A program made the position numbers and the translations under genes. From IMG/VR virus record IMGVR_UViG_3300007274_000042: a stretch of 64,000 bases of DNA; one strand, written 5' to 3'. The notes under the pieces were generated by a model, which was not told the origin of the DNA, did no database searches, and was given only the letters and a program-made list of their open reading frames with translations. The stretch comes from an uncultured virus (IMG/VR IMGVR_UViG_3300007274_000042). Lineage: Duplodnaviria > Heunggongvirae > Uroviricota > Caudoviricetes. Shown piece after piece: positions 922 to 37,990 of this stretch (positions are counted from its first letter, which is position 1; the number at the start of each line of letters is the position of its first letter).

Positions 922-943
922 GTTAAAGCACCCGACAGGGTGC
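922..943 (-). promoter_or_regulatory. Hairpin element 1
   Basis: Plus strand GTTAAA-GCACCC-GACA-GGGTGC, between convergent genes. Confidence 0.7.
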
Positions 944-946
944 CTG

Positions 947-1360
947 TTAACAGCGGCGGAAGTGTAGATATCCGTGGTGTAACTCTAGAGTCTCGTGATC
1001 GAGAACGTGCTGTGAAAGTGCATCATATACGTCGTTACAACCTAGGGTCGTGTGGTTAAAGTGAACGGAGATACCCTCAGACAACTGAGGTTCAGCCGGT
1101 TGATACCAACGGATAGGTGATAGAAAATCAGACAACTCATTTACTTGAGACACCCAACTGTTCAGTTCCTCTAGGCGCTGAGCAGTTTTTATAATGTGCT
1201 GCTCGTGTGCTTCAGCGACAGGCAGATTAGGAATGTTATTGCTGAGCAGAGCGTGCTTCCACATCAACGTCCCATCTTTCTGGATGAGTCGGCAAGGGTG
1301 AACTTTGGTTCCACTAGGCAGGCTGTAAAAGTAATTAGGATTAATATGCTTAGACATCAC
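947..1360 (-). CDS. Hypothetical protein
   Basis: 137-aa ORF overlapping the stop of the upstream gene. Confidence 0.6.
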   Translation of the reverse strand: MMSKHINPNYFYSLPSGTKVHPCRLIQKDGTLMWKHALLSNNIPNLPVAEAHEQHIIKTAQRLEELNSWVSQVNELSDFLSPIRWYQPAEPQLSEGISVHFNHTTLGCNDVYDALSQHVLDHETLELHHGYLHFRRC

Positions 1361-1960
1361 AGTTCTCCTTTAGCAGTTTCATAGTAGTCAAGGTCTTTAG
1401 CCCAGTTGTCACCGGCATACTCGTTGTAAATGACTCGACCTACATCTCTGAAAGTGTTGTAGAAGAGAGTTACTTTATCGATATCTGTAAGCGCATGATC
1501 CTGTGGTGGACCGTAGACCACAAGGTTCCAAGTAGATGGAGACACTGTTTCAAACCCGGTAGCTGTAGCGCGGAGCTGCTTGATTCGTTTGAACGGGATA
1601 CACAATGGGTAGTCCCAGACCACAGGAGCTGCACGGAGCAGTTCAGAAGCACTAGCAAAGTAGACGAAGCTCTTGATATAGCCATTGCGATACTCGTTAA
1701 TACATTTGTTCAACCAGATTCGGCAGTCACGGACAGCACCCTTGGGTGATACCCAGACGTTGCCGTGCCAGTGTTCCTTCAATGGATTGTTCTCGATGCC
1801 AGGTACAGACGTAGCATCTACCAACACCTGCTGAACGGGATCAGAGGTGGGGTCATAGTCAATGGAACCCATCACTTGACGGGCACGTTCGATGAGCTGT
1901 GGTGTTGGGTAGAGAGGAAGTTTAAGTCCTTTGGCTGCGAGCTTATCCGCTAAATTCTTC
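1357..1960 (-). CDS. Phage N6-adenine methyltransferase-like protein with degenerate motif IV (start lies in or near the N gap)
   Basis: PTPQLIERARQVMGSIDYDPTS...W.G.VWVSPKG; the NPPY position reads SPKG. Confidence 0.6.
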
Positions 1961-2374
1961 NNNNNNNNNNNNNNNNNNNNNNNNNNNNTCTTGGCTCCCA
2001 CCTGCTTCGACAGCAAAAGTTCTTGTTCCTGCATCAGATATTAGAGTAATTAGTACGTTCTTAGACCAGTCATTCTCGTCAATCTCTTCCATCAACCCGC
2101 GCAAGAACTCAAGGATATCTTCGTCACCTTCTCGTTCAGCAATACGGATGTCGAATTCGACAGCGTGGCCTGACATAAAGGTGGTGGAGTCGTTGCACAG
2201 ATTGATCACAAGTGATCCAGCGCCGTGCTTCTCTACTCCAGTGCAAGAAATGTCGATCAGATCCATAAGGATCAACTCGGCAGTTGCAACTAGGAACTTT
2301 TGTTCGTTGGTTTTCTCCTCGCCAAATTTATCAGAGGCGATGAGTTGTTGTAGCAAGTCGTTTCTTCTAGACAT
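1943..2374 (-). CDS. Hypothetical protein (contains N gap)
   Basis: 143-aa ORF in the operon. Confidence 0.6.
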   Translation of the reverse strand: MSRRNDLLQQLIASDKFGEEKTNEQKFLVATAELILMDLIDISCTGVEKHGAGSLVINLCNDSTTFMSGHAVEFDIRIAEREGDEDILEFLRGLMEEIDENDWSKNVLITLISDAGTRTFAVEAGGSQXXXXXXXXXXEEFSG

Positions 2375-2406
2375 ATTCGAATGACTCTTTGTTTAGGTTA
2401 AGTAAT

Positions 2407-3213
2407 TTATTCTTCTGATGTGGAGTTTTCCTCATTATCAGTAGGCTTTTTCAAGCTATCAGGGTTAGGTATTGCTTGTTGACTAGGGTGTCGTCCCGCC
2501 AACATATCCGCAAGCACTGCTTCAAAGCGTTCGCCAAACCCTGTATCTACATCAAACATCAATGCAGCACGTGCATCGTGTTCGTCTTGAGCGATGAGCT
2601 TCTCTTGTTCTTTGAGAGCTTCTTCCATTACATACTCAGCAACTTGTTGCTTGAGAGTGTGTAGCTCACATGCGAGCTCAAAACTTTCTAGATAGGAATC
2701 GTGGTCAACAAAGACCCCAATTTTCTGGGGTATTAAATGGAAAGGGTTACAGCAGTACTTGTTACCGCAGGTAGTTTTAACTCCAGCAAAGCCTAGGTCT
2801 CCCCAGGTAAACCACATCGCAACACGTTGAGGGTGGTGCTGAGTGGAGGAAGAGATGCCGTGCCTACGCCAGCTGAACTGAGGCATCCCAGTCCGTTGAT
2901 TAATACAACCCTTCCAGTCCCAGCATTCATCGGGTGCACCGATCTCTACTTGTGACCAGAACTTAAGTGCTCGCTTCTGTTCTTTCTTTAGGAGACGGCC
3001 GATGTCGAAAGACATCCGTCCCTCACGAGCAGAGGCTACGCAACGGCAGCAGGCTTGGTGACTATCGAAACGCATTGAGGTGGAGCTGAACCTACCGATG
3101 CTGTGACCGGCATAGATACAGAGCTCACCTTCCTCAGCTGTGTTGCTGAGCTGTAGGTTGCGCCGTCCATATGTATGACCACCACGTTTCTTGGCAGGCT
3201 GTGCTTCAGACAT
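2407..3213 (-). CDS. HNH/His-Me-like Zn-binding protein with degenerate active site
   Basis: FWSQVE...ECWDWKG...RVAMWFTWG...TTCGNKYCCNPFHL. Confidence 0.6.
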   Translation of the reverse strand: MSEAQPAKKRGGHTYGRRNLQLSNTAEEGELCIYAGHSIGRFSSTSMRFDSHQACCRCVASAREGRMSFDIGRLLKKEQKRALKFWSQVEIGAPDECWDWKGCINQRTGMPQFSWRRHGISSSTQHHPQRVAMWFTWGDLGFAGVKTTCGNKYCCNPFHLIPQKIGVFVDHDSYLESFELACELHTLKQQVAEYVMEEALKEQEKLIAQDEHDARAALMFDVDTGFGERFEAVLADMLAGRHPSQQAIPNPDSLKKPTDNEENSTSEE

Positions 3214-3449
3214 CAGAAATCTCCTTCAGGTTTGACGTGAGTACCACCGTGTGCTGGGTACTGCTGTTCTTCTGGGAGCAATGCCAGTTGGTGATTTAGT
3301 TTGCGCTCAAAGCGAGTGCTGTTTTCGAACTTGATCATCACTAGTTTTGCTCGTCCGGTGTAGTACTCAGGGCGACCAACAACAAGTGCGGTGCGATGAC
3401 CGGGCAGGACAGTAACGCGCTGGCCGATCATGATATCTTCTGCTTTCAT
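3213..3449 (-). CDS. Small SH3/KOW-like hypothetical protein
   Basis: IMIGQRVTV..G...ALVVG...VMIKFE. Confidence 0.5.
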   Translation of the reverse strand: MKAEDIMIGQRVTVLPGHRTALVVGRPEYYTGRAKLVMIKFENSTRFERKLNHQLALLPEEQQYPAHGGTHVKPEGDF

Positions 3450-3492
3450 TTGAATCTTATTTATGTATTGAACCTAGTAGTTAAAGTGTAAT

Positions 3493-5730
3493 TTAAAAGT
3501 CGTTGAGAATGTGACCTTCATCGATAGGATCACTCTCAGGACGCTTCCAAATACGAATGGATTTAGACTTTCCAGTAACAGTATCTTTGCGGCTAGTGAC
3601 TTGCCTACGCCAGCCCATAGCCTGAAGTACATCCGCTACACGGCGTCCTTCTCTACGTCCTTGTGAACGTGGATCGAGTTCCAATGCTTTGCTGAGAACT
3701 TCAGCAGCAGTGACCTCAGTACGGATGGTTACATACGCAGCAATCTTATCCATCCAAGGATCTGGATCACCAAACTCTTGGATGTAATCTGAAATCTGAG
3801 CAATCTCTCCAGCCGTAAACTCGTGCGGTTGTTCTTGCCGGTAAGCTTGAACTGCCGCAGCCCACAGACTATCACGCTCAGCGATCATTTGCCGCCAAGG
3901 AATAAGAAAGTTTGCTCCGACTTCCAGAGGGATGAAGCGTCTATTTCCTGTAGAGTCCACCAGAAACTGGTTACGGTTAGTAGTACCAATAAGAACAAAA
4001 CGACGAGCAAGCTTAGAAGGAAGAGATGCGTAGGGGAATCTAACTTCATCGACACGTGTAGTAATTAAGTTCTTGAAGTTCTCGATGTTGCGTGTATTGA
4101 AGTAGTTATCAATCTCAGGAAGCTCCAAGAGCCACGCAACGTGTAATCGATACTGTTCTTTCATCAGTGTATCCAGAGGAGTACTGACTTCAGAGAACAG
4201 TCCAGTTGGTACAAGTGAGCGGGAGAACATTGACTTACCAACACCCTGTGCGCCCACAAGGATTGGGAGCCAAGACATCTCACAGCCAGGGTTGTAAGCC
4301 CTTGCTACAGCTCCGATCATCATCCGCTGCATAGCCAGTGTGGCTAGGCGGTGCTTGTTACCAAGGAAGATCTCACCGATGTTGTCCCACTGTTCGTGAG
4401 GCTTAGCGTGAGCAGCACATCCATCGAGGTAACGACGGATGGGACAGTACTGATTACGGTTAGCGGCGTATTGAACTGCTGCCTTGACACGCATCTCAGG
4501 AATAAAGACACCGTTCTCACAGCTGAGTTTGGTAGTCATCAGGTCAAGCTGATTGCCTTCCATGACAATCGTCTTGCCGTTGCTGTCTGTATATTCAATC
4601 GCGTTCGTCAGTTCATTACGACGCAGGTCAGTGAGAATTTCTTTGACCTTACGGACATCATCCGCACGCTCTTTCGCGGCGTCGTCTGAGGACTTTTTTG
4701 GCCGTCCTCTCTTGACTACTGCCTGAGATTGATCAGGCACTGGCTCCATAGCCACGTCATCTTGAAGCATATCTCCTCCTGAAGTTATTGTTTGTACAAA
4801 TGAACCGAAGTCCGGCACTGGATCGAACTCGGTGTACCCCGTTGCTGTACCCACAGCACCGAAGCGAAGGTGACTAGGAAGTGCTCTAGTCCAAGCCTTA
4901 TCTTGTTTCTTTGCCAGCGAATAAAGTTTAGTATGACCGCCGTACTTACCGAGACCTCGCCACTTAAATGGCTTGGTATTCTCTGGTTTTTCTCCATGGT
5001 GTCCACGTAGGACCCAGTCAACCCAGTCATTAAAGAGTGCCTTACCTACGCCAGCACAGGCAGCCATGACAGGTAGGTAGTACTCTTCGTACTCGCCGTC
5101 TTCTGAGGGCCGTAGGAACTCACGCAGGAGCCACTGACAGCGTCTCACGTCAAGGTCCGTGACCTCACTAGACGTGAACTCCACCTCATCTTCATAGGCG
5201 ATGTCTTGAAGTAGGAACTCGGGTACAGCTTCTACTTCTTCGTTGTATTTAAACTCAGCTTTCTGGTTACCAAACCATAGTCTTTCTGGTTTTTGCCCGC
5301 AGTTGTCCTTGAGCTTGTCGAGACCTAGGTCAGCAAGCAATCGGTTAACCACAAGCCAGTAAGCACCACGGTGCTGAGCAACTGACTCAAGCTCCATAGC
5401 CAACGGGAAGATGGCACGGAACCTGTGCTCCTGCTCTGAGTGAGAGGAGCTGGTGTATGTAGCCGCACACCACTGACGAGCTGTCGTAGTGGACCAGAAG
5501 CGTGCGAGCGTTGTGTCACCGTCAATGTCAATGACGATGACGTTTGAACCACAAGCATTGTCTGTAAGCCGATGGCGGTTAGCAAAATGTGTCGAACACC
5601 ATCCATAGCCAGCCTTGACCCAGCCCTCTAGCCAGGTCACAGGCTCTTGAATGTTGAGCCAACCATGGGCTACATCTTGTGGGTTTGTCTTGTTTAGACA
5701 GCCCTTATTAACTGCTAGCTTTAGCTTCAA
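3493..5730 (-). CDS. Primase-helicase (primase-like N-terminus, PriCT-2-like domain, VirE/VapE ATPase)
   Basis: IDIDG and YTSSSH...RFRAIFP; Walker A GAQGVGKS; GTTNRNQFLVDSTGNRRF; probable TTG start at 5730 with GGAGG upstream. Confidence 0.85.
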   Translation of the reverse strand: MKLKLAVNKGCLNKTNPQDVAHGWLNIQEPVTWLEGWVKAGYGWCSTHFANRHRLTDNACGSNVIVIDIDGDTTLARFWSTTTARQWCAATYTSSSHSEQEHRFRAIFPLAMELESVAQHRGAYWLVVNRLLADLGLDKLKDNCGQKPERLWFGNQKAEFKYNEEVEAVPEFLLQDIAYEDEVEFTSSEVTDLDVRRCQWLLREFLRPSEDGEYEEYYLPVMAACAGVGKALFNDWVDWVLRGHHGEKPENTKPFKWRGLGKYGGHTKLYSLAKKQDKAWTRALPSHLRFGAVGTATGYTEFDPVPDFGSFVQTITSGGDMLQDDVAMEPVPDQSQAVVKRGRPKKSSDDAAKERADDVRKVKEILTDLRRNELTNAIEYTDSNGKTIVMEGNQLDLMTTKLSCENGVFIPEMRVKAAVQYAANRNQYCPIRRYLDGCAAHAKPHEQWDNIGEIFLGNKHRLATLAMQRMMIGAVARAYNPGCEMSWLPILVGAQGVGKSMFSRSLVPTGLFSEVSTPLDTLMKEQYRLHVAWLLELPEIDNYFNTRNIENFKNLITTRVDEVRFPYASLPSKLARRFVLIGTTNRNQFLVDSTGNRRFIPLEVGANFLIPWRQMIAERDSLWAAAVQAYRQEQPHEFTAGEIAQISDYIQEFGDPDPWMDKIAAYVTIRTEVTAAEVLSKALELDPRSQGRREGRRVADVLQAMGWRRQVTSRKDTVTGKSKSIRIWKRPESDPIDEGHILNDF

Positions 5731-6484
5731 ATCTTGCCTCCATATCGTGAAATTGTTTACAACGCTTAAGGAATCTGCTCTCATGCAGTTCCAATTGATC
5801 ACCGTCTATAAATATTGCTTGGCTAGTTTCCGGAGTGGAAACAATAATCAACGCAACATCGCAATGATAACCTGTTCTCTCTTCGAGTGCTAGTCGGTAT
5901 GCCGACATTTGCTGCGCACATTTAGTATATTTTCTGAAGCCTCCAAAGCCAATGCGATCACCACGATCAGGGAACGATGAGTGATACGGAGCGTTACTTG
6001 TTTTGAAGTCAGCGATGACACGCACGCCACCGATCTCTCCGATCAAGTCGGGGCAGCCAGCGTACAAATGTTCTGTGCTCCAGACGTAAGCAACCTCTCT
6101 GTCATCACTACGCAGGTGGTTCCAGTCAGGACGCAGTGGTCGCTCGGACCAATGGATCTCATCAAACCAATCTAAATACTGGCTTATTCCATCCCAGAAG
6201 GGTTGGTATTGTTCAGGAACTCCTGGGTCAATTCCCCGAAGATAGTTTTCACATCCGAGGTGAATGGCAGAGCCCCTGGTGCTTGCCTCTTCCAGGGCAC
6301 CTGGGTTTCGTTGTTGCCACTGCTTGAGTCCGGCTTTGGACTTCTCTGATTCAGTTGCTGAGAGGACTGTTGTAACGCTTGGCATGTACAGGCCGGAGCA
6401 CAAGTACTTGCGATAGCCGCTTGGCGTTTGGATTCTGTATGGTTTTTCTTCAGCTGGCTCAGGGGCCAGGGGGGTAGTAGACAT
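5708..6484 (-). CDS. PD-(D/E)XK exonuclease
   Basis: PSVTTVL, RGSAIH, YAGCPDLIG, ADFKTS, QMSAY. Confidence 0.85.
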   Translation of the reverse strand: MSTTPLAPEPAEEKPYRIQTPSGYRKYLCSGLYMPSVTTVLSATESEKSKAGLKQWQQRNPGALEEASTRGSAIHLGCENYLRGIDPGVPEQYQPFWDGISQYLDWFDEIHWSERPLRPDWNHLRSDDREVAYVWSTEHLYAGCPDLIGEIGGVRVIADFKTSNAPYHSSFPDRGDRIGFGGFRKYTKCAQQMSAYRLALEERTGYHCDVALIIVSTPETSQAIFIDGDQLELHESRFLKRCKQFHDMEARFEAKASS

Positions 6485-6834
6485 AGTTTTTCTTTGTGTA
6501 TTTTTCGATGACAGCTCACGCACAGCGGAATACATTTCAGCACTTCATCCCACCAGGCAGAATGATTTCTGCTGGTGTGACCAATGTTGAATTTCTTTTC
6601 GCTTTCGTCTACGTGATGCCAGTCAATCATGTCGGGATCTGATTCGTCGCAGAACAGACACCCAAACTGTGCGAGGATATTTTTACGGAAGTCTCGATTG
6701 CGTTCGGCTACTTTCTTAGATTCGCGGAGAATTTTTTCTCTATTGCGTTTGTAGAACTCTTTCTTTTCGGCGCGAATACGTTCCTGGTTATCCAGGTAGT
6801 ACTCACGCCTAGCTTCCGGGGAAGACCTACCCAT
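6184..6834 (-). CDS. HNH endonuclease
   Basis: CLFC...DWHHVD...KCIPLCVSCHRKIH; tail overlaps the exonuclease gene. Confidence 0.75.
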   Translation of the reverse strand: MGRSSPEARREYYLDNQERIRAEKKEFYKRNREKILRESKKVAERNRDFRKNILAQFGCLFCDESDPDMIDWHHVDESEKKFNIGHTSRNHSAWWDEVLKCIPLCVSCHRKIHKEKLCLLPPWPLSQLKKNHTESKRQAAIASTCAPACTCQALQQSSQQLNQRSPKPDSSSGNNETQVPWKRQAPGALPFTSDVKTIFGELTQEFLNNTNPSGME

Positions 6835-13302: not shown

Positions 13303-13530
13303 TCATTTATCACGGAGCGTGATACGCCCACGTGTCAAGTCATATGGAGAGAGTTCAACAGTGACTCTGTCTCCCACAAGCAATTGTATTTTGCGTGTGA
13401 TTAGTTTGCCCGATGCTCGGCACAAACATTCATGACCTTCGGGTTCATTGAGTTCTACGTTGAAATATCCATTGCCGCTTTCGCGAATGATGGTTCCTCG
13501 TGTCTCAATTACATTCGCTTTTTTGCTCAT
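13303..13530 (-). CDS. infA: Translation initiation factor IF-1
   Basis: IE.RG.I..E..NG.F.VEL...SGK....KI.LLVGDRVTVELSPYDLTRGRI. Confidence 0.9.
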   Translation of the reverse strand: MSKKANVIETRGTIIRESGNGYFNVELNEPEGHECLCRASGKLITRKIQLLVGDRVTVELSPYDLTRGRITLRDK

Positions 13531-16345: not shown

Positions 16346-16368
16346 CATAGTGGGTTCTAAATATAAAA

Positions 16369-16752
16369 TTATCGACGCATTCTCCGCATTGGACGACGCA
16401 TTGGACGACGCATAGGTCTAGGCATAGGTCTAGGCATCGGACGAGGCATAGGTCTAGGCATTGGTCTAGGCATAGGCCGTGCCATAGGTCTAGGCATAGG
16501 TCTAGGTCTAGGACGCGGCATAGGACGCGGCATCGGTCTAGGCATGGGCCTTGGTTTAGGTCGAGGCATCGGCCTAGGCATTGGTCTAGGCATAGGCTTC
16601 GGCTTAGGCCTTGGCTTAGGCATAGGTCTCGGCATTGGTCGAGCCATTGGCCGAGGCATGGGCCGAGGCATCGGCCTACGCATTGGTTTACTAGGCCTAG
16701 GTTTCGGACGAGTCATCATGCGGGCCATTGGTTTAGCCCGCATATTCATCAT
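16369..16752 (-). CDS. Basic (MPRP)n repeat protein
   Basis: 127 aa with no acidic residues; repeats use varied synonymous Arg and Pro codons. Confidence 0.7.
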   Translation of the reverse strand: MMNMRAKPMARMMTRPKPRPSKPMRRPMPRPMPRPMARPMPRPMPKPRPKPKPMPRPMPRPMPRPKPRPMPRPMPRPMPRPRPRPMPRPMARPMPRPMPRPMPRPMPRPMPRPMRRPMRRPMRRMRR

Positions 16753-16757
16753 CCGAT

Positions 16758-17468
16758 CTACCGCTTTCCCCGCATCATGCGGCGCATCCCCCTACCGTTC
16801 ATACGACGGTTTTGGATACGCATACGTCGTTGCATTCCGCCACGGTTCATACGCATTCCGCCACGGTTCATACGCATTCCGCCACGGTTGTTGCGCATTG
16901 AGCCACGGTTAGGCCGAGGCATTGGACGACGGTTAGGACGAGGCATCATTCGGCGACCAGCACCAGGACGTCTTCCCTTCATCATTCCGATCTTCGGAGG
17001 ACGCATTCCAATGTTGCGCATCTTGGGATTCTTGGGCTTGGGCTGGCGACCCATCATCATCATCATCATGCCGCCGCCTTCTTCGCCGACAGCTTGTGAA
17101 GTGAGTTTGCGGCCACCCATCATGTTCATCATGTTCATCATGCGTTCAGCACGAATTCGCATATTGCGCATCATGCGTTCGCGTCTGGCCTTTTGCCGTT
17201 CAGCCATTCTTTTCTGACGCTCTTCACGCATTTTATTTGGCTTCATACCGCCATTCATGCCGCCATTCATGCCGCCGTTCATGCCGCCATTCATGCCGCC
17301 CATGCCGCCGTTGCCGTTTTTTCCACCGGAATTACCGGAGCCGTTTACGGATGCGGTTGCGTTGCCGATGTTCGACAAACTGATGGAGTTGTTGTTTGTG
17401 GTACCACCACTACCACCTGCCTGACCTCGCATGCCTGAGCCTGCGGCGGCAGATTTTCTTGCTGACAT
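16758..17468 (-). CDS. Low-complexity Met/Arg/Gly/Asn-rich basic protein
   Basis: GGMN and RGGMRMN repeats; AAGGA SD-like sequence upstream. Confidence 0.7.
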   Translation of the reverse strand: MSARKSAAAGSGMRGQAGGSGGTTNNNSISLSNIGNATASVNGSGNSGGKNGNGGMGGMNGGMNGGMNGGMNGGMKPNKMREERQKRMAERQKARRERMMRNMRIRAERMMNMMNMMGGRKLTSQAVGEEGGGMMMMMMGRQPKPKNPKMRNIGMRPPKIGMMKGRRPGAGRRMMPRPNRRPMPRPNRGSMRNNRGGMRMNRGGMRMNRGGMQRRMRIQNRRMNGRGMRRMMRGKR

Positions 17469-17728
17469 AGTAAGTTCCTTTTCTAAGGATTAACTACTTA
17501 ATATTAACAATTAGTTTTTGTCTAATTTGCCTTCAATGCGATTGAGAGTAGCAATCAATCGCTCAAGAATAGGAGCAATATCAGATGCCTGCTTGGTTCC
17601 ATTGCCACCAGCAATTCCATTAGTCTGTTGGCGCGTTAATGCTTTTCGATGTGACATAATCAGTTTCAGTCAGTTCTTTTATTTTAATAAGTCTCAGCAA
17701 GCTGCTCGACAGAATAAGCAAGGAGTAC

Positions 17729-17753
17729 AAAAAAGACCACCGATGTGGTGGTC
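17729..17753 (-). terminator. Intrinsic terminator after hli
   Basis: GACCACC/GGTGGTC stem followed by T6 on the minus strand. Confidence 0.7.
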
Positions 17754-17776: not shown

Positions 17777-17983
17777 TCACCAGAGGCCCGGGATAATCTG
17801 ACCAGTTACGGCATAGGCCCCCAAGGCAGCGATGATGCCAAGCATGGCAGCACGGCCATTGAGCTTTTCAGCTTTCTCGTTGTGTGTTTCGTAGTTTTCA
17901 GACATGGTTTTAGGGTCGATGTACATTTTGGGTTCGATAGCGTAGGCATTGAGGCGTCCACGCTCTTCTTGAATTACGGTCAT
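17777..17983 (-). CDS. hli: High-light inducible protein
   Basis: AEKLNGRAAMLG...TGQIIPGLW. Confidence 0.95.
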   Translation of the reverse strand: MTVIQEERGRLNAYAIEPKMYIDPKTMSENYETHNEKAEKLNGRAAMLGIIAALGAYAVTGQIIPGLW

Positions 17984-21408: not shown

Positions 21409-22491
21409 TCAACCAATAGAAGGAGCGAGCAGAGCAACAGGAAGACTTTCCGAAGTTGCCAGGTCAAGAGGGAAGTTGTGAGCATTACGCTCATGCATAA
21501 CTTCCATGCCGAGACCAGCGCGGTTCAGCACATCTGCCCAGGTATTAACAACACGGCCTTGGCGATCAACGATGGATTGATTGAAGTTGAATCCGTTGAG
21601 GTTGAAAGCCATGGTGCTGACGCCGAGGGCGGTAAACCAGATACCGACGACAGGCCAAGCTGCGAGGAAGAAGTGCAGCGAGCGAGAGTTGTTAAAAGAG
21701 GCATATTGGAAGATCAAGCGTCCGAAGTAACCGTGAGCGGCAACGATGTTGTAAGTCTCTTCTTCTTGGCCAAACTTGTAGCCATAGTTTTGAGATACTT
21801 CTTCTGTCGTCTCACGGATGAGGCTACTGGTAACCAGAGAGCCGTGCATAGCAGAGAACAAGCTACCGCCGAATACGCCAGCAACGCCAAGCATATGGAA
21901 GGGGTGAGAAAGAATATTATGCTCTGCTTGGAAGACAAGCATATAGTTGAAAGTACCCGAGATGCCCAGTGGCATTCCGTCAGAGAAACTTCCTTGACCG
22001 AAGGGATACACCAGAAAGACCGCAGTTGCAGCAGCGACAGGTGCGCTGTATGCAATGAAGATCCAGGGGCGCATACCTAGTCGATAGCTAAGTTCCCACT
22101 CTCGTCCCATGTAAGCAAAGATGCCAATGAGGAAGTGGAACACGACGAGCTGGTACGGGCCCCCGTTGTAGAGCCATTCATCAAGTGAATTAGCTTCCCA
22201 AATTGGGTAGAAGTGTAGTCCGATGGCATTGCTGCTTGGTACGACGGCTCCCGATATGATGTTGTTTCCATAAAGCAAAGAACCAGCGACTGGTTCACGA
22301 ATGCCGTCGATGTCAACAGGCGGTGCTGCAACAAAAGCGACGACGAAACATACAGTTGCTGCGAGCAGAGTCGGGATCATCAGTGTTCCAAACCAGCCGA
22401 CATAGAGACGGTTGTTTGTTGATGTGACCCAGTCACAGAAGTTGTCCCAATTACTCTTGGGACTAGAAATAGAAATTGTAGTTGAAGACAT
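21409..22491 (-). CDS. psbA: Photosystem II D1 protein
   Basis: NRLYVGWFG...[13 protein letters not shown]; 360 aa with the Synechococcus-type C-terminal extension. Confidence 0.99.
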
Positions 22492-23261: not shown

Positions 23262-24181
23262 TCAGACGCTAACAAGAAGATCTTGTGCAACAGCGAATGC
23301 TCGCTTGCTGATTTGAGCGCCGACACCGAAGGTGCCACGTGCAAACTGAGCTCGACCCTTGGCAGCACTGGTGCCACGAGTGCTTGTTTCTACTTGTGTG
23401 ATGGCATTGACAGCATTCCAGAGTGAGGCAGGAGCGTATTCAGAGCCATAGCCACGTAGAAATGCAGCTTGAAGCTTGTCACGCTTACGGAAGACTTGGC
23501 CTTCGTCAATGTTGTAGACCTCGTCAACAAACTCACGGAAGCCGTCAAGTCCCAGAGACGCACGTGAGAACTCACGCATGAGCTCGCACTCAGTGACAAA
23601 GTCCTGACGGGCTACATCGATACTGCTGATAAGAGCATCGAAGTTGTTGTTAGCACCATTTTTGTGAGTGATGCTGCTACGTGCACCGCTGTCTTGCATT
23701 GCAGCAGTCAGTGTGTTTTGACAGACAACACGGATGTTGGTGAACTTGGCACCACAACCAGTNNNNNNNNNNNNNNNNNNNNNNNNNNNNNNNNNNNNNN
23801 NNNNNNNNNNNNNNNNNNNNNNNNNNNNNNNNNNNNNNNNNNNNNNNNNNNNNNNNNNTCAACCTCTTCGCGGATGAACTCGGCCATCCGAAGGAGTGAA
23901 TCGTTCTGCACGATTTCGTACTGACGTGAGACAACCCCAAGTAGGGCTTGCGTGTCAGTGCGGACGACAGCGAATGATTCTGAAGGGAACCACAGGGGCA
24001 CTTCCTTGTTGTTACATGCGTCGTCGTTGACGTAGTAAAGCTCTCGCTTCTCGACAGTAAAGAGTGCGTCGGCAGTTTCAAACGCCTCTCGCGCTGGGAG
24101 TGTGCCTTGGGTGACGACCCCTTGGCCGTGCCAGGCAGCTTCGCCGTTGCCGAGCCAGCCGGATGTGAAATTTGCGGGCAT
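23262..24181 (-). CDS. DUF932-family phage protein (split by N gap)
   Basis: AWHG.G, VVRTD....LGVVS..Y..VQN, SLWNAVNAIT. Confidence 0.8.
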
Positions 24182-24199
24182 TGTTGCTCCATTTATTTG

Positions 24200-24231: not shown

Positions 24232-24262
24232 CTTTCAGAGATTATTCAAATAGGAACGATTG

Positions 24263-24415
24263 TCATTCCTGAGCGTTCTTTTCGTCCCCATATTTCTGTA
24301 AATACAGTTCTACAGCTTCCAGGATTTGGTCGTTCATAGATATGTCTCGTTGAATACTTCCGAACTTGAGAAGCCTGTGCATCTCAAGTGGCATCACCAC
24401 GGTTACTCGTTTCAG
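24263..24415 (-). CDS. Ribbon-helix-helix DNA-binding protein (about 50 aa, probable CTG start)
   Basis: Own translation KRVTVVMPLEMHRLLKFGSIQRDISMNDQILEAVELYLQK; GAGG upstream of the CTG. Confidence 0.6.
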   Translation of the reverse strand: MKRVTVVMPLEMHRLLKFGSIQRDISMNDQILEAVELYLQKYGDEKNAQE

Positions 24416-24618
24416 GAAAGCCTCGTGGCATCAGTCCCTAGCATACCTAGGCAGCTGCTGTGGGACCGATAGAACGAGAATGAGTATCGTTTTGTCAGTA
24501 TCCGGAAATACAGTTTTACAGCGTGAAGCGTTATTGAGAACGTAGTTTTCGAAAAAGCGGTTTTTTGCTCGAATGTGTCTGGTATCACAGAAAATTATAC
24601 TATTCTCAATAAGGCAAA

Positions 24619-24762
24619 AACTACGCAAACTACGCTTTGCTACGCTATTTCCTATAAACTTCTTTTTTTATTCCCTCTTGGGGTATAGCACTACGTAGTT
24701 CCTCTACCCTATTTAATTTTGAAGGGTATAGACAGTAGCGTAGCTAGCGTAGCTTTTTTGTA
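24619..24762. repeat. CTACG iteron array, copy A
   Basis: Three direct CTACG, CTATAAAC, CTACGTAG palindrome, AGCGTAGCTAGCGTAG. Confidence 0.75.
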
Positions 24763-24771
24763 GCAGATACT

Positions 24772-24794
24772 AAAAAACCCAGTACTTGACTGGG
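24772..24794 (-). terminator. Intrinsic terminator
   Basis: CCCAGT/ACTGGG stem followed by T6 on the minus strand. Confidence 0.6.
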
Positions 24795-24821
24795 CTTTGA
24801 GAAACTACGCTAAATGCAGCT

Positions 24822-28506: not shown

Positions 28507-28947
28507 TCAATAATCGCTGGGAGTGGCATCCACGGGAGCCTTGCGGATCACCTTGGTGCCAGCAGCAGCCTTAGGCTGTACTTGGTCTTTGGGAAGCATT
28601 CCCAGACCACCGTCAGGGATCTGAGCGGAGTAACCCAGCTCGATCTGAGGACGCTTGCGCATGTTGAGCTCGCCGTCCTTCTCGTAAGTCTCGGACACAG
28701 CTTCGATGTGACCAGTGACCGTGATCATCCGACCCTTAGGGAGGTGACCTGCGGTGAACAGAGCCATAAGGTTGGTCTGATTCACGAAGGTGACGCTCAC
28801 GCCACGCTCGTCATTTTTGACGGGAGTCGTGATCATCGTCACGGCAAGCATGTCATTGCCTGCCTTGGTCTCGACGATTTGGGAATCGGAAATACGACCG
28901 GTAACAACGAAGTTGTTGAAGTTAGCGTATGCGGTGTAATCGGACAA
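28507..28947 (-). CDS. SSB-like OB-fold protein
   Basis: NNFVVTGRI...KGRMITVTGHI; probable TTG start. Confidence 0.6.
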   Translation of the reverse strand: MSDYTAYANFNNFVVTGRISDSQIVETKAGNDMLAVTMITTPVKNDERGVSVTFVNQTNLMALFTAGHLPKGRMITVTGHIEAVSETYEKDGELNMRKRPQIELGYSAQIPDGGLGMLPKDQVQPKAAAGTKVIRKAPVDATPSDY

Positions 28948-28965
28948 AGTTCGAATGAAGTTAAA

Positions 28966-28998
28966 GAACACGAAGTGTTAGACCCCACGGCAGTGGGG
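28966..28998 (-). promoter_or_regulatory. Hairpin element 7
   Basis: Plus strand GAACA-CGAAGT-GTTAGA-CCCCAC-GGCA-GTGGGG. Confidence 0.75.
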
Positions 28999-29009
28999 CC
29001 TGGCTGTTA

Positions 29010-29414
29010 TTACTCGTGGCCAACGAGGTAGGTATCGTTACCACCGAGTGAGATGGACATTGCGATGTCCATGATGGCCTGCCATTTGCCCGCATCGCGG
29101 AGCCAGGCAGCGCCACATTCGGTGTCGCCACGCTCCATGGCGTTTTCACCGACAGTCGTGTGCCAAGCAACCATGTTGTTGGCAACCTTCAGGAGTGCGA
29201 CTTTGTGCACGAGAGGGTCTTTGACCATATCGCACATGAGGTCGAGACCTGCATGAGCAGCATCTTCGATTGCTTTCTCAGTAGGGTCTTCACACTCAGG
29301 ACAGCCGGGGCAGTCATCAGAATGTTGAGCTTTGAGTTCTTCCTCTTTAGGGGCAGACTCAAGGAGCTCTTCGAGAGCCTTGGGAGAGAAGCTATCGGGG
29401 ATTGACGAAGTCAT
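29010..29414 (-). CDS. Hypothetical protein
   Basis: 134-aa ORF bracketed by elements 7 and 8. Confidence 0.65.
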   Translation of the reverse strand: MTSSIPDSFSPKALEELLESAPKEEELKAQHSDDCPGCPECEDPTEKAIEDAAHAGLDLMCDMVKDPLVHKVALLKVANNMVAWHTTVGENAMERGDTECGAAWLRDAGKWQAIMDIAMSISLGGNDTYLVGHE

Positions 29415-29460: not shown

Positions 29461-29471
29461 CCTGGCTGTTA

Positions 29472-29795
29472 TCAGTGACCTTGCTCAGAGCAGAATGCAT
29501 CTGCAAGGGACTGAAGAGCAGGTTTACCTGCTGGTCCGAACGCTTCCCACGTACCACCACATACGAGGTAGAGAGTGGTTGCGTACTCAGGACGATTGCT
29601 CACTTCACGAAGTGAAAGTGTGTACGTCCGAGGTCGGATTGATTGCCAACAAACTGAGTGACCACCAGTTGTTGTGTAGCAACCACCGTCGGAACGATGG
29701 GTTGCTTGGTCGAAGGCATCACCTACAGTTGCAAGGGCAGGGTTGCCCAAGCAGCAGGTGATGGCAGCTGTAGCTGCGAAGAGAGATTTGAACAT
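29472..29795 (-). CDS. Hypothetical secreted protein
   Basis: Signal-peptide-like MFKSLFAATAAITCCLGNPALA. Confidence 0.6.
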   Translation of the reverse strand: MFKSLFAATAAITCCLGNPALATVGDAFDQATHRSDGGCYTTTGGHSVCWQSIRPRTYTLSLREVSNRPEYATTLYLVCGGTWEAFGPAGKPALQSLADAFCSEQGH

Positions 29796-31838: not shown

Positions 31839-31888
31839 CCTGCTTGTTTATCTATATACAATATTAGAGTGATTGTAGTTATTAAGTA

Positions 31889-34003
31889 ATGCCTAGAAAT
31901 AGTCAATATGAACAGATGGCAGCTGAGTTTGAGCGCCAACAGGCAGCACAAAGAGCATCTACATTTAAGGAATTAATAGATTCAGGTGAGCTTTCAGGTA
32001 GTGAGATAGATGATTGGATGATTTCAGAAGGAATGTCTGAAGAAGAGTTAGGTAGTTTGGCAGAAGCCAGGTATAAGCAAGCTGTTGAAAGAGCTAAAGA
32101 GATTTCTGATGCAGAGAAAGCTGCAACATCTAAGCTTGCAGGTGAGATTGAAGCAGATACATTGGCTCAAGAAGCAGATGACCTAGCCTTTGATCGTAAA
32201 GAAAGGCCTGGTCATTATCTTGAGGAAGACCTTCGACCTACATATAAGAAGGTACAAGGTCACTACAAACGATTAGGTTTAGATCCCAGCCATGCTAAGA
32301 CGGTTGAAGGTGCTACAAATATTCCAGGTACTCAAGTGCCTAGAGAATTACGTATTCCTGAACCCGCAGGTGGTCGCACTCGTATAGCTACATCACCACA
32401 CAGAGTGGATGGTATTACGATGCTAATGCCAATGGAAGACCCTGTAGACAAGGGTAAGCCATTAGCTATGTTTGAAGGGACCGAAGTTGAAGCTAGAGGC
32501 TCTGTATATGGTCGAGACCAAGTGCCTTTTAAAAGAAAGTCAGAATATACACAGACAAAAATCGCCCGCCGAGCAGGCCGCAGGCTGCGAGCAAACAATA
32601 ACAGCAACACGAGAGCAACCGACTTTATCGATATTGATACGGGAGCACGTGTAGACGGACAGATTGATACTGGACGTAAACAATCACAGTTATATAACTG
32701 GGTAGATGCTGCTGAAGACACATTCATTCCTATGAATGAAGTGCCATCAGCGTTTGAGAGAGATGAACGTACAGCTAAGGTTAAACAGCGTGTAAGAGCT
32801 CACATTGATGCTAACCCTGATAAATCTATTACAAAGGTAATGGACGAGCTTGGTAGTGGAGATGAGCCACAGCTACGCGGTAAAGATCCAGGCACACCTC
32901 CACAGAAGGGCAAGCTGCTTGATCAAGGTTATGAGCCTAAAGATGAGGTTATATACACAGAGTATGAAGGAAGAGACAGGAATAAGTTGGACTACAACAA
33001 GCCATCTCCTCGTTCACAAGCCCCTAAGGGTGCTCGTATTGAGGATATTCCGAAGCAAGCTGCTGTAGTACAGAATATTACTGGTGATGAGCTGAAACAA
33101 TCACTACATATACATCCCAACTCATTAGGAAGAGTGGATGCAAATGGTGTTGAGTTCCCAAGTAGAACAAATGTAGATATTGTTATACCTGAGAAGTATA
33201 GAAGTGAATTTACAACACGCTTAGGTGAACCACCTACTAGTGCTGTCAATCAGTTCCTTGATTATGATGGATCATCAAGGCCAAGTAACCCTGTCAGACA
33301 GACAAGTACACCTGTCACAAGGCAAGTACGCCAAGCTCCACCTGCTGGTACACCAGTGAGACGCAGAGTCGTTCCTCCAGGTGAAGGTGGATTTGTAATT
33401 ACACCTGGGAAAAGACCCGCTGCTAGAGCACGGGTACAACCCAGAGTTAGACCTAGAGTTCCTGGCAAAGGACCTAGTGCTATTACAAAGATCACAAAGG
33501 CAGCACCCGTAGTAGATATTGCAGTAGAGGGTGGTCTTTCGTATTTGACAGGGGAGACTGATCGATTAGATCATGCTGCATGGAAAGGTGTTACCTCGTT
33601 AATACCTGATGCTGGTGCAACAGGAGGGAACACCATAGAAATCGGCGGTAAGGTCTACACCCACGATGAATCAACAAATATGATTACACCAATGGGTGGT
33701 GGTAAGACACAAGGACTGGCATACAAGGATGGGAAGCCTGTAGCCGTTGAGTACGGCAGTGTTAAAGGCCGGACATCTATGGTGGATGATGTTGTGACTC
33801 CACTTGTTGAGACAGGTAAAGCCATCAAAGAGACTGCTGTAAGGAGAGCTAAGGAATGGACGAAGCCCAAGCCTGCTGCTACTCCACAGCGTGTGATGGC
33901 AGTGCTCAACGGTAAGGAGGGCTACATGCTGAAAGGTGACAGTAGTTCCTTCAGGATGGCCAACTGGAGTGATGCACAACGGAATAAGTATTACGGTAAG
34001 TAA
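31889..34003 (+). CDS. Large hypothetical protein, possibly virion-associated
   Basis: 704-aa ORF with a TACAAT box upstream. Confidence 0.7.
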   Translation: MPRNSQYEQMAAEFERQQAAQRASTFKELIDSGELSGSEIDDWMISEGMSEEELGSLAEARYKQAVERAKEISDAEKAATSKLAGEIEADTLAQEADDLAFDRKERPGHYLEEDLRPTYKKVQGHYKRLGLDPSHAKTVEGATNIPGTQVPRELRIPEPAGGRTRIATSPHRVDGITMLMPMEDPVDKGKPLAMFEGTEVEARGSVYGRDQVPFKRKSEYTQTKIARRAGRRLRANNNSNTRATDFIDIDTGARVDGQIDTGRKQSQLYNWVDAAEDTFIPMNEVPSAFERDERTAKVKQRVRAHIDANPDKSITKVMDELGSGDEPQLRGKDPGTPPQKGKLLDQGYEPKDEVIYTEYEGRDRNKLDYNKPSPRSQAPKGARIEDIPKQAAVVQNITGDELKQSLHIHPNSLGRVDANGVEFPSRTNVDIVIPEKYRSEFTTRLGEPPTSAVNQFLDYDGSSRPSNPVRQTSTPVTRQVRQAPPAGTPVRRRVVPPGEGGFVITPGKRPAARARVQPRVRPRVPGKGPSAITKITKAAPVVDIAVEGGLSYLTGETDRLDHAAWKGVTSLIPDAGATGGNTIEIGGKVYTHDESTNMITPMGGGKTQGLAYKDGKPVAVEYGSVKGRTSMVDDVVTPLVETGKAIKETAVRRAKEWTKPKPAATPQRVMAVLNGKEGYMLKGDSSSFRMANWSDAQRNKYYGK

Positions 34004-34032
34004 TACAATAGGGATATTGAATATATAGTGAA

Positions 34033-34470
34033 ATGCTCGGAATTAAATTTGCTGGAGATAGACTGCGTGATTTAGATACTGCGTATGCTGACGCTGTCTA
34101 CAATCCAGAAAAGCCATTCAGGGCTATGACGAGTGGTATTCCGTTGTCAGAGTTCAACGGTAGATATACCACTGCGAATGATTATGAAGCTGCTGGTGGC
34201 ATAGGTCCAAGGACACAGGGAGATGCACGGAATGCTGCGATATCAGACGCTGTATATCTGACAGCAAATGTGGCATCAAGGTATGCACTACCAGCAGGAG
34301 GAGTGACGTTGGCTGGTAAAGCGTTGCATGATTTATCAGGCAATCTGTTTGCATTGTCAGCAGAAGATGCAGAACAGTACGCTCAAGCATTTGAACGAAA
34401 TGATATGCCTGAGTATGCTGCAACTATGAGAGCATCACAGGCAAGTACACAGGGCGAACTGCCCATGTGA
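34033..34470 (+). CDS. Hypothetical protein with KFAG motif
   Basis: 145 aa; TACAAT box upstream. Confidence 0.65.
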   Translation: MLGIKFAGDRLRDLDTAYADAVYNPEKPFRAMTSGIPLSEFNGRYTTANDYEAAGGIGPRTQGDARNAAISDAVYLTANVASRYALPAGGVTLAGKALHDLSGNLFALSAEDAEQYAQAFERNDMPEYAATMRASQASTQGELPM

Positions 34471-34510: not shown

Positions 34511-34840
34511 TCAAGAGACGGGAGTGACATCGACGGACTCAGTTACAGAGTCAGCGATGGCCTGGTTGCGCTCGGCAGAGCCAACATAGGACTGTTCAGT
34601 GTCGTCGGCATTAGCCACGAGACGAGGAGTGACTGTGCGACCCTGTGATTTATCAAGGGCATCGCAGATGTGGTCACTACGTCCACCAACCTCTACATAT
34701 GAGGTCTGGTAGGTCTGGTCAGCACCAGATCCAGAGTAGGTGGTGAGACCGATCTGGAACGTGGCAGCTGAGCCATCGTCGTACGTACGAGTGCCAACGA
34801 AGGGACGGACACGTCCGGTGCGAGCTGAGAGCATATGCAT
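34511..34840 (-). CDS. Hypothetical early-type protein
   Basis: Between elements 12 and 11. Confidence 0.6.
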   Translation of the reverse strand: MHMLSARTGRVRPFVGTRTYDDGSAATFQIGLTTYSGSGADQTYQTSYVEVGGRSDHICDALDKSQGRTVTPRLVANADDTEQSYVGSAERNQAIADSVTESVDVTPVS

Positions 34841-37373: not shown

Positions 37374-37389
37374 TGATTGTGATAGTTAT

Positions 37390-37422
37390 GAACAATCAGG
37401 AGTAAACCCCGCGACAGCGGGG
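37390..37422 (-). promoter_or_regulatory. Hairpin element 20
   Basis: Plus strand GAACA-N6-AGTAAA-CCCCGC-GACA-GCGGGG. Confidence 0.78.
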
Positions 37423-37431
37423 TATGTCCGA

Positions 37432-37635
37432 TCAGTCACGGTCAGTGACGATAGCTATAGCTGCGCCTACCGCAGCAGATGGCAGCAGTATCCAGGGATT
37501 CTGGAACTGCCAGTTGATCATCTGCTGATACCACGCGATGTGCGTGTACAGGTAGTACGCGATTGCGAGTCCAGGCACTGTGCCGATGACGGCACCAGTG
37601 GTGAGTGGATGACGCAAGAGAGCATTACGGAGCAT
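37432..37635 (-). CDS. Small two-helix membrane protein
   Basis: Between elements 21 and 20. Confidence 0.6.
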   Translation of the reverse strand: MLRNALLRHPLTTGAVIGTVPGLAIAYYLYTHIAWYQQMINWQFQNPWILLPSAAVGAAIAIVTDRD

Positions 37636-37652
37636 TGATTGTGATAGTTATT

Positions 37653-37685
37653 GAACAATCGAAGCTAGACCCCGCGACAGCGGGG
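37653..37685 (-). promoter_or_regulatory. Hairpin element 21
   Basis: Plus strand GAACA-N6-GCTAGA-CCCCGC-GACA-GCGGGG. Confidence 0.78.
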
Positions 37686-37763
37686 TAGCTATACATCAAC
37701 GGAAGACATAGTCCGTGATGAGTCCTAGTGCGGTAATGGCCGCCGCAGCGAGTAGTAGTTCCA

Positions 37764-37940
37764 TCAGCAGTTTGCTGCGTACTCACGGATAGCATCCGCA
37801 TACTCCTCGACTGTGTCGTAGCCATGACGCTGAGCATCAGCGAGAGTGAGAGTAGCGGGACGCAGTGAGCTGCGCACCTCGGTACGAGTACCACCGATAC
37901 GAGCGGCAGCATCATCGAGAACATCGTTGAGATATGACAT
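37764..37940 (-). CDS. Small hypothetical protein (58 aa), followed by a coupled 22-aa hydrophobic ORF at 37696..37764
   Basis: Own translation MSYLNDVLDDAAARIGG...EYAANC; follows element 22. Confidence 0.6.
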   Translation of the reverse strand: MSYLNDVLDDAAARIGGTRTEVRSSLRPATLTLADAQRHGYDTVEEYADAIREYAANC

Positions 37941-37957
37941 AGTTGTGAATAGTTATA

Positions 37958-37990
37958 GAACAACTCGTGTTGAACCACACGACAGTGTGG
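37958..37990 (-). promoter_or_regulatory. Hairpin element 22
   Basis: Plus strand GAACA-N6-GTTGAA-CCACAC-GACA-GTGTGG. Confidence 0.75.

Follow-up and report, generated by a model that had tools for sequence, protein, structure and literature searches.

A hairpin-and-box module repeated before early genes of an uncultured cyanophage and its possible role as a portable transcript-punctuation cassette

A repeated module between minus-strand genes

The DNA analysed here (the window; 64,000 nt of the uncultured virus IMG/VR IMGVR_UViG_3300007274_000042) comes from a tailed phage of cyanobacteria, as judged from PHROGs and Pfam scans of its open reading frames (ORFs), and carries 22 copies of a 33-nt module that consists of a small hairpin and a following box. 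A preliminary description of the sequence had listed 22 hairpins with one shared orientation, had given their plus-strand loops as GACA in 18, GGCA in two, GTCA in one and AACC in one, and had raised the question whether the motif occurs equally within genes and on both strands. The results showed that every one of the 22 hairpins has a perfect 6-bp stem and a 4-nt loop, that the loop counts are correct, and that all copies are located on the minus strand and between genes, with none on the other strand. A further GGCA hairpin, which would be the third, was considered at 16661 and is not part of the family.

Read along the gene strand, the module follows the preceding stop codon after 0-34 nt (typically about 10 nt) and has the consensus yCnCnC-TGTC-GnGnGr for the hairpin, then TYTAAC, six bases without conservation (N6) and TGTTC, usually with one more T; a G-poor leader and the start codon come next. 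The leader (5-20 nt) is rich in A, T and C, with 18 G in 258 nt (7%), and no Shine-Dalgarno motif of the GGAG type was present in the aligned leaders. Upstream of the hairpin, nothing is conserved in the aligned copies. The copies in the window are the following, with the distance from the hairpin to the start codon and the score under the covariance model R1 described below.

911..943, minus: h928, GCACCC-TGTC-GGGTGC, TTTAAC, second box lost (GCGAA); between converging 947-1360 (minus) and 582-920 (plus); stop codon 3 nt upstream, no downstream ORF; 31.2 bits
15916..15948, minus: h15933, CCACGC-TGTC-GCGTGG, TCTAAC-N6-TGTCC; ATG 52 nt on (ORF to 15251); 39.5 bits
16313..16345, minus: h16330, GCCCCC-TGTC-GGGGGC, divergent box TATAGT..GTGGT; ATG 50 nt on; 28.4 bits
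24199..24231, minus: h24216, CCCCAC-TGTC-GTGGGG, TCTAAC-N6-TGTTC; ATG 23 nt on (ORF 23677-24192); 44.4 bits
26869..26901, minus: h26886, TCGCAC-TGTC-GTGCGA, TGTAAC-N6-TGTCC; stop codon 1 nt before, ATG 25 nt on; 41.1 bits
28463..28495, minus: h28480, TCTCCC-TGAC-GGGAGA, no box, T-rich tail; stem extendable to 9 pairs and terminator-like in the terminator scan; ATG 33 nt on; 30.7 bits
28966..28998, minus: h28983, CCCCAC-TGCC-GTGGGG, TCTAAC-ACTTCG-TGTTC; then ORF 28507-28971 (non-ATG start); 46.6 bits
29428..29460, minus: h29445, TCCCCC-GGTT-GGGGGA, TCTAAC-ACTTCG-TGTTC; ATG 30 nt on; 42.7 bits
30050..30082, minus: h30067, TCACAC-TGCC-GTGTGA, TCTAAC-ACTTCG-TGTTC; ATG 32 nt on; 42.2 bits
31806..31838, minus: h31823, TCACAC-TGTC-GTGTGA, TCTAGC-N6-TACTT; ATG 29 nt on; 50 nt from a diverging gene for a 704-aa protein, no long same-strand ORF ending just upstream; 38.7 bits
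34467..34499, minus: h34484, CCCACC-TGTC-GGTGGG, box degenerate, T-rich tail, terminator-like with 8 pairs; between converging 34511-34840 (minus) and 34033-34470 (plus), no downstream ORF; 34.7 bits
34850..34882, minus: h34867, TCGCCC-TGTC-GGGCGA, TCTAAC-N6-TGTTC; ATG 26 nt on; 47.1 bits
35027..35059, minus: h35044, CCCCGC-TGTC-GCGGGG, TTTAAC-N6-TGTTC; ATG 22 nt on; 47.9 bits
35280..35312, minus: h35297, TCACCC-TGTC-GGGTGA, TCTAAC-N6-TACTA; ATG 30 nt on; 41.7 bits
35498..35530, minus: h35515, TCACAC-TGTC-GTGTGA, TTTAAC-N6-CACAA; ATG 22 nt on; 30.6 bits
36331..36363, minus: h36348, CCCCTC-TGTC-GAGGGG, TTTATC-N6-TACTT; ATG 28 nt on; 39.4 bits
36579..36611, minus: h36596 (cassette F), CCCCGC-TGTC-GCGGGG, TTTATC-N6-TGTTC; ATG 32 nt on; 43.3 bits
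36794..36826, minus: h36811 (cassette E), CCCCCA-TGTC-TGGGGG, TATATC-N6-TGTTA; upstream stop codon abuts the hairpin, ATG 29 nt on; 42.2 bits
37072..37104, minus: h37089 (cassette D, absent from the related contig L077), CCCCCC-TGTC-GGGGGG, TTTACT-N6-TGTTA; ATG 16 nt on; 37.7 bits
37390..37422, minus: h37407 (cassette C), CCCCGC-TGTC-GCGGGG, TTTACT-N6-TGTTC; ATG 33 nt on; 40.8 bits
37653..37685, minus: h37670 (cassette B), CCCCGC-TGTC-GCGGGG, TCTAGC-N6-TGTTC; ATG 34 nt on; 44.3 bits
37958..37990, minus: h37975 (cassette A), CCACAC-TGTC-GTGTGG, TTCAAC-N6-TGTTC; first copy of the early run; 37.6 bits
15949-15960, 28999-29010, 29461-29472 and 31839-31850, plus strand, right of the hairpin: CCTGGYTGTTA-like bases

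The last row defines a sub-family (h15933, h28983, h29445 and h31823), in which CCTGGYTGTTA-like bases are also found on the upstream side of the hairpin and lengthen the RNA helix via a G-U pair. T-rich tails were seen behind h34484, h28480 and h849 of the related contig L077, and the stems of h34484 and h28480 are longer as well. None of the copies is touched by the five masked runs of N in the window (1961-1988, 23763-23858, 59325-59439, 59886-59976 and 60114-60172; 389 bases in total).

A gene follows 20 of the 22 copies, and where a gene follows the box is kept. An ATG-started ORF of at least 38 aa begins 16-52 nt past the hairpin in 19 copies, the ORF behind h28983 has a non-ATG start, and h928 and h34484 have no gene behind them; the earlier count of 20 copies 17-53 nt before a start codon is corrected accordingly. 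Both h928 and h34484 lie between converging gene ends, have no downstream ORF and have lost the TGTTC box. The box thus goes with the following gene and decays where none follows. Since the hairpin is kept in these two copies where genes converge, the result suggests that it has a job of its own at gene ends. At the other extreme, h37975 and h31823 stand at the head of minus-strand gene runs and have no upstream ORF on that strand.

To assess the number of copies against chance, occurrences of the core pattern CNCNCTGTCGNGNG were compared with 100 dinucleotide-preserving shuffles. It was found at 16 places, all of them on the minus strand, for an expectation of 0.14 (largest 2 in a shuffle). 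A covariance model (R1) was then built from the alignment of the 22 copies (A1) and used to scan the window. The result showed exactly the 22 copies, all on the minus strand, at 28.4-47.9 bits, and the next-best match scored only 11.9 bits, whether the filters were at default or off, indicating that there are no degenerate copies, none that are reversed and none in 38-64 kb. The absence from the plus-strand virion block that had been reported by eye was thereby reproduced. In A1, all 132 of 132 stem cells are paired, compared with 72.3% in shuffles (0 of 500 reach the observed value) and 33-54% with slid partners. However, the stems are not fully covarying, as had been claimed: pairs 2, 4 and 6 are nearly fixed as C:G (22, 21 and 21 of 22 copies) and only pairs 1, 3 and 5 covary, where a change is always found on both sides. 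The distribution of copies is uneven, with 12 in 34.47-37.99 kb (one per small ORF), five in 28.4-31.8 kb and five in the other 27 kb; they crowd among small ORFs without assigned function and are sparse among genes of DNA metabolism.

A sigma-70-like promoter scan of 22-41 kb gave 21 sites, compared with 25.2 expected in shuffles, and none was tied to the copies. Within the module, nothing is conserved at -35/-10 positions, and the alignment contains no hexamer pair at the proper spacing. Three placements were considered and rejected: with TYTAAC as -35 and a -10 17 bp further on, the hexamers found there are inconsistent by eye; with the TG of TGTTC as an extended -10, the spacing is wrong; and with the loop as -35 and TGTTCT as -10 (17 bp), a G occupies a position where sigma-70 requires A and TYTAAC is left unexplained. 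A simple terminator scan with a T-run criterion was passed by five of the 19 copies in 22-41 kb, the others having T-Y-T-A-A-Y, so that the absence of a U-tract, previously noted for most copies, holds for most and fails for these five. An ordinary intrinsic terminator, with a stem of 7-8 pairs and six T, lies at 17729-17753 (minus reading) behind the ORF 17777-17983; it is also conserved in L004, one of the related contigs, suggesting that the phage also uses textbook terminators.

Diverged relatives and rearranged cassettes

Motif scans of viral contigs yielded one related contig, an IMG/VR sequence of which L003, L004 and L206 are views. Among 116 metagenome loci drawn by pattern, more than one copy was found in L046 and L077 only; these belong to one metagenome assembly, L046 (1440 bp) with six copies, of which one is cut and five are full, and L077 (2150 bp) with nine. 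L004 has 73-89% DNA identity to 5.2-22.3 kb of the window, and its two copies are orthologs of h15933 and h16330, while the proteins of L046 and L077 are 35-60% identical to cassette proteins of the window. The three related contigs add 16 full copies, giving 38 in all. The phage S-EIV1, in contrast to these relatives, has no copy detectable with R1 and no loop-conserved hairpin family of its own.

The results for the 38 copies showed that the module is conserved across diverged relatives. In the core stem, Watson-Crick pairs fill 227 of 228 cells, the exception being C-A, and G-U does not occur; pairs 2, 4 and 6 are C:G in 38, 36 and 36 copies, and pairs 1, 3 and 5 are never unpaired (114 cells). 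The loop is 4 nt long in 38/38 copies, its second base is G in 38/38, and its gene-strand sequence is TGTC in 26, TGCC in seven, TGAC in two, GGTT in two and TGAT in one. After the hairpin, T+1, T+3 and A+4 are kept in 38, 36 and 36 copies, and the T and G of the second box in 34 and 27. Compensated changes were found between orthologs: h15933 has CCACGC/GCGTGG and its L004 ortholog CCCCAC/GTGGGG (two stem changes), and the copy before cassette F has CCCCGC in the window (h36596) and CCCCCC in L046. The h16330 hairpin is identical in L004.

The module is portable. The 20 proteins behind the copies are mutually unrelated, the only pair reported having E = 0.001, and nearly identical boxes precede them: TCTAAC-ACTTCG-TGTTC is the same in h28983, h29445 and h30067 although their stems differ, nearly the whole leader is common to h37407 and h37670, and other pairs share much of the downstream flank. 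Between h28983 and h29445, the flanks match at 13/15 and 22/30 positions, but the hairpin at only 9/16.

The cassettes, each a single ORF behind its own copy, are also rearranged between relatives. With the window cassettes lettered A to G from h37975 downwards, the order is A-B-C-D-E-F-G in the window; in L077 it is A-B-C-E-F, followed by a terminator-like copy without an ORF and two unrelated cassettes (X1-X2); and in L046 it is Y0-A-Y1-F-C, where Y0 and Y1 are unassigned cassettes. The orthologs of cassette F in L046 and L077 (56-60% aa identity) retain a copy in front. In addition, 1336 bp of the window (16348-17683) are absent from L004, and the left edge of this stretch is 2 nt from h16330; it holds two ORFs, 16369-16752 and 16758-17468, neither with family matches. 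Taken together, these results uphold the gene-cassette half of the preliminary description, in that cassettes have been gained, lost and reordered and an indel of 1.3 kb abuts one copy.

Logan contigs of four public DNA runs from three studies were also inspected. Among the joints listed, those at hairpin edges were 28999|31686 with 23 letters between (4/4 runs), 35058|38035 (shorter side 21 letters), 35311 back to 35076, and 24183|35018 (one run). These joints are compatible with shuffling and are not proof of it, given that their sides are short and that repeats break contigs. In these contigs, the summed depth falls to about zero at 32.0-34.0 kb and is also low through most of 34.0-37.5 kb; no evidence was drawn from this hole.

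Possible functions of the module

The 6-bp core cannot distinguish which strand folds, because the reverse complement of the hairpin has the same arm composition. A seventh pair could join the invariant T behind the hairpin to the base that precedes the hairpin. It would be G-U in 16 of the 38 copies and A-U in 14, and is unpaired in eight; among copies with C at +2, position -2 is G in seven, and in copies with 'cagg...tct' flanks the helix reaches nine pairs via G-U. As the template strand would have a C-A mismatch in place of the G-U, the seventh pair favours a hairpin in gene-sense RNA. On the other side, the template-strand loop G-N-N-A is closed by C:G in 35/38 copies, and the template strand spells the very stable DNA mini-hairpin motif GCGNNAGC in 10/38, namely the copies with G as fifth stem base and a loop fitting GNNA. 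This loop and the G-U-free core would favour DNA. The lack of G-U in the core could, however, stem from mutation and not from selection: by template switching at near-palindromes, one arm takes over a change made in the other. Mean folding energies do not separate the strands (gene versus template strand, -11.7 versus -12.3 kcal/mol as RNA and -6.9 versus -7.3 kcal/mol as DNA), the DNA parameters favouring the template only slightly.

We propose, with moderate confidence and from sequence comparison, that the module may be a portable transcript-punctuation cassette that works like the promoter-early stem-loops (PeSLs) of T4-type phages, without a sigma-70 promoter. The hairpin would form in the transcript and would terminate or protect the upstream message, acting as a weak terminator or as a processing or 3'-stabilising hairpin. 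The box and the leader would serve the downstream gene, by a restart or a processed 5' end and an unstructured landing site for the ribosome. Every early gene would thereby form a cassette complete in itself. The recurrence of one 33-nt module may also make it a joint for recombination, through which cassettes would enter, leave or change places. Loop conservation and the three invariant C:G pairs imply a protein that would read the hairpin.

According to the PeSL study of Comeau, Arbiol and Krisch (2014; PMC4122927), PeSLs have a stem-loop just upstream of an early promoter and are tied to indels in variable regions. The present module resembles them, as far as that text describes them, in being a short composite element ahead of the start codon that opens with the stem-loop, in its high density around small variable ORFs and its rarity among genes for structural proteins, in the occurrence of degraded copies, and in lying beside insertions, deletions and exchanges between related phages. 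However, PeSLs have a sigma-70-like -35/N17/-10 promoter and a Shine-Dalgarno sequence, whereas the present module has neither and has TYTAAC-N6-TGTTC instead; PeSL stems vary in sequence and length, whereas here the stem is always 6 bp with a 4-nt loop, an invariant loop G and three C:G pairs; and the carriers of PeSLs are T4-like, whereas the present phage is not (of the phage records searched, S-EIV1 has the most similar large terminase, at 55%). The module may thus work like a PeSL, but it is not one, differing in the sigma-70 promoter, the Shine-Dalgarno sequence and the phage group. In the available portion of one published study, the cyanophage S-PM2 was searched for PeSLs and these were sparse. 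Literature on S-EIV1 and cyanophages, on cyanophage intergenic stem-loops and on promoter or terminator hairpins of early genes yielded no description of the element, and the terms promoter, hairpin and stem-loop are absent from the available text of a preprint on an S-EIV1-related marine lineage.

If the punctuation reading is true, the early region of a cyanophage lineage that does not belong to the T4 group is assembled from cassettes of one gene each, bounded by a rigid hairpin-plus-box signal that host sigma-70-type recognition does not account for, and the idea behind PeSLs, that regulatory repeats are recombination joints, extends to another phage lineage. The covariance model would then provide a sequence handle for early regions and cassette borders in uncultured cyanophages, and the question would arise which protein recognises the invariant loop G and the three invariant C:G pairs of the hairpin. 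For 5'-end mapping and for strand-specific mutants, the outcomes predicted by an RNA hairpin are the opposite of those predicted by a DNA hairpin of the N4 style.

Several points weigh against transcript punctuation. Efficient termination is unlikely for most copies, since only five of 19 passed the terminator scan and an ordinary terminator exists at 17729-17753. Compared with intrinsic terminators, the module has the GC-rich hairpin right behind the stop codon, the conserved T+1 and T+3, and in some copies a T-rich tail or extended stem; in most copies, however, TYTAAC replaces the U-run, and the loop and half of the stem are conserved in sequence. The invariant loop G, the three C:G pairs and the G-U-free core (0/228) are not needed by a plain terminator or stabiliser, and fit recognition by a protein, possibly of a DNA hairpin. 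Moreover, h37975 and h31823 have nothing upstream on their strand to terminate. The seventh-pair support for RNA is modest, as the base in question is a purine in 30/38 copies and related copies share ancestry. Finally, the evidence for rearrangement comes from three short related contigs.

The preliminary description had favoured a promoter made of a hairpin in single-stranded DNA, and such a reading, which we consider unlikely, has points on both sides. As in phage N4, the hairpin would be extruded on the template DNA strand (loop GACA), TYTAAC would be the initiation site, and the reader would be a putative phage RNA polymerase or the host polymerase with a phage factor. The available part of one paper on the N4 virion RNA polymerase (vRNAP; PMC4496689) describes early promoters with a 5-7 bp stem and a 3-nt loop, three in number, read by a virion polymerase of ~3500 residues, in whose stems conserved bases contact the polymerase and the other bases only need to pair. 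By comparison with that account, the present module likewise has a small GC hairpin upstream of early genes on the template strand, a stem that mixes invariant with freely covarying positions, a conserved loop that on the template can close by a G:A pair, and a short conserved sequence (T+1, T+3 and A+4) between hairpin and likely start; the lack of a sigma-70 promoter and of G-U in the core also fits. The closing C:G pair of the G-N-N-A template loop and the GCGNNAGC copies likewise agree with such a promoter, as the template reads GCG-N-C-AGC within a longer stem in those 10/38 copies, resembling the mini-hairpin DNA GCGNNAGC/GCGNAGC in the available part of PMC13037366. That motif, however, is defined there by thermodynamic stability in vitro, and it does not require the loop base that is invariant here (C on the template strand, G on the sense strand). 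Against an N4-type promoter, the loop has 4 nt instead of 3, there are 22 copies per 38 kb compared with three promoters in N4, for two copies, placed where gene ends converge, there is no gene to transcribe, the seventh-pair G-U (16/38) would turn into a C-A mismatch in a template hairpin, such a promoter does not account for the TGTTC box, and DNA folding favours the template only slightly. In line with the earlier statement for the window, no RNA polymerase was identified among 106 ORFs scanned against Pfam and 47 scanned against PHROGs. The 704-aa protein and an 824-aa protein are both charged and of low complexity, with atlas scores of at most 0.80, no Pfam or PHROGs match and one distant homologue alone, and the sole row of a PDB search with the two was the 824-aa protein against cytochrome c peroxidase (E = 0.047, not meaningful). 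A viral-contig scan with the 824-aa protein found no relative. A more specific form, which we also rate as unlikely, would combine a very stable template d(C-GNNA-G) mini-hairpin, three base-specific C:G contacts and the initiation box TYTAAC into structure-read promoters of a polymerase or factor of a type new to cyanophages; the reader could be encoded beyond the window, or could be the host polymerase retargeted by a phage protein. If that were true, each early gene would bear its own portable hairpin promoter, with at least 22 of them shuffled between phages.

An improbable alternative is a nut-like antitermination or regulatory RNA site, in which the hairpin would be of boxB type and TGTTC(TTT) of boxA type, and which would modify the elongating polymerase or recruit an RNA-binding protein. 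The order of hairpin and then box, with a conserved single-stranded box at a short distance, matches boxB-then-boxA in the 16S-23S rRNA spacer of Synechococcus, three copies lengthen the box to TGTTCTTTAA(C/A) or TGTTCCTAAAC, the seventh-pair G-U points to RNA, and the constancy of the loop and of some stem pairs implies that a protein reads the hairpin. However, the spacer boxA is GAACCTTGACAAC and its hairpin has 9 bp with another loop, whereas the phage box shares few of these bases (for a host inferred from psbA only) and precedes every gene; conservation is limited to the five bases TGTTC, the following bases vary, and N-, Q- or Nus-like genes were not identified in the Pfam and PHROGs scans of the window. 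To our knowledge, an antitermination loading site before every gene has no precedent. It is likewise improbable that the module is a dedicated recombination site, at which the hairpin in single-stranded DNA would be the substrate of an enzyme of the HUH/REP (repetitive extragenic palindrome) or integron-attC type that moves cassettes. The gain, loss and reordering of element-bounded cassettes, the indel that begins 2 nt from h16330, the different stems within near-identical flanks (h28983 and h29445) and the strictly Watson-Crick core would agree with such a site, but homologous recombination between 33-nt repeats explains the same rearrangements, and a role in gene expression is indicated by the constant position and direction of the module with respect to stop and start codons and by the decay of the box in copies without a following gene. 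The REP/RAYT and attC elements are imperfect palindromes with extrahelical bases and a cognate enzyme, in contrast to the 227/228 paired cells here, and the HUH/REP alternative raised previously found no backing in the gene content, since no HUH, tyrosine or serine recombinase was present among the window ORFs scanned, only HNH endonucleases. An operator in double-stranded DNA, with the C-rich/G-rich palindrome as the binding site of a dimeric regulator and no function for the hairpin itself, is highly improbable: positions 2, 4 and 6 are invariant in both arms and the C-then-G arm order is never reversed, as such an operator might have, but the variable pairs 1, 3 and 5 are complementary in all 114 cells, which a duplex-binding protein does not need, and the centre (TGTC) and both flanks are asymmetric.

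Gene content and other features of the window

The remaining features assigned by the family scans are the following.

20173-21234, minus: photosystem II D2 gene (psbD-like), adjoining the psbA-like gene
21409-22491, minus: photosystem II D1 gene (psbA-like)
3493-5802, minus: primase/helicase
49939-51477, plus: large terminase
56587-57525, plus: complete sigma-70-family factor (regions 1.2, 2, 3 and 4), within the virion/packaging block
13303-13530, minus: IF-1/eIF-1A S1-like ORF, 75 aa (PF01176, E 4.8e-17)
2407-3213, 6184-6834 and 58795-59172: three ORFs for HNH-type endonucleases (PHROGs or Pfam)

The minus-strand genes also include those for ribonucleotide reductase, ThyX and MazG. The virion and packaging block is encoded on the plus strand, begins at 38.7 kb and includes tail-fibre-like proteins and a virion protein of 737 aa. 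Neither Rfam nor tRNA scans gave a match in the window, and megablast of two window stretches against phage records was likewise without result. The nearest match of the large terminase was that of Synechococcus phage S-EIV1 (55%, among the phage records searched), TIM5-like cyanophages reaching 24% among the matches listed, and an S-EIV1 match was present for 8 of 45 window proteins tested. Judged from these protein similarities, the phage is a cyanophage distantly related to S-EIV1. Its D1 protein is 85-90% identical to cyanobacterial D1, with 90% to marine Synechococcus (best match) and 89% to a Cyanobium, and from this psbA similarity alone we infer that the host is a picocyanobacterium. 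One contig with the 704-aa protein spans 92,119 bases, suggesting that the phage genome probably extends past the 64-kb window, by what may be roughly 28 kb.

The IF-1-like protein, an RNA-binding protein, is encoded by a phage whose early leaders have no Shine-Dalgarno sequence. The three HNH ORFs may be homing endonucleases that add to the mosaicism. Within the minus-strand region, a plus-strand island at 31889-34470 holds the 704-aa ORF and a 145-aa ORF and is bounded by h31823 and h34484; homologues are nearly absent, the exception being one protein with 42% identity. A promoter-like site directed into the 704-aa gene (GTGACC, 16 bp, TACAAT) coincides in part with the right arm of h31823.

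The non-coding stretches 24232-24821 and 37991-38683 have CTACG/CGTAG iteron-like repeats in common, with a block of ~26 nt that is 92% similar between 24727-24752 and 38617-38642, and GTTAC/GTAAC repeats are abundant in 38.0-38.3 kb. In the public-run contigs, joints connect the two stretches and the summed depth is about tenfold higher at 24.0-24.5 kb. The two stretches could be an origin or a late-promoter region.

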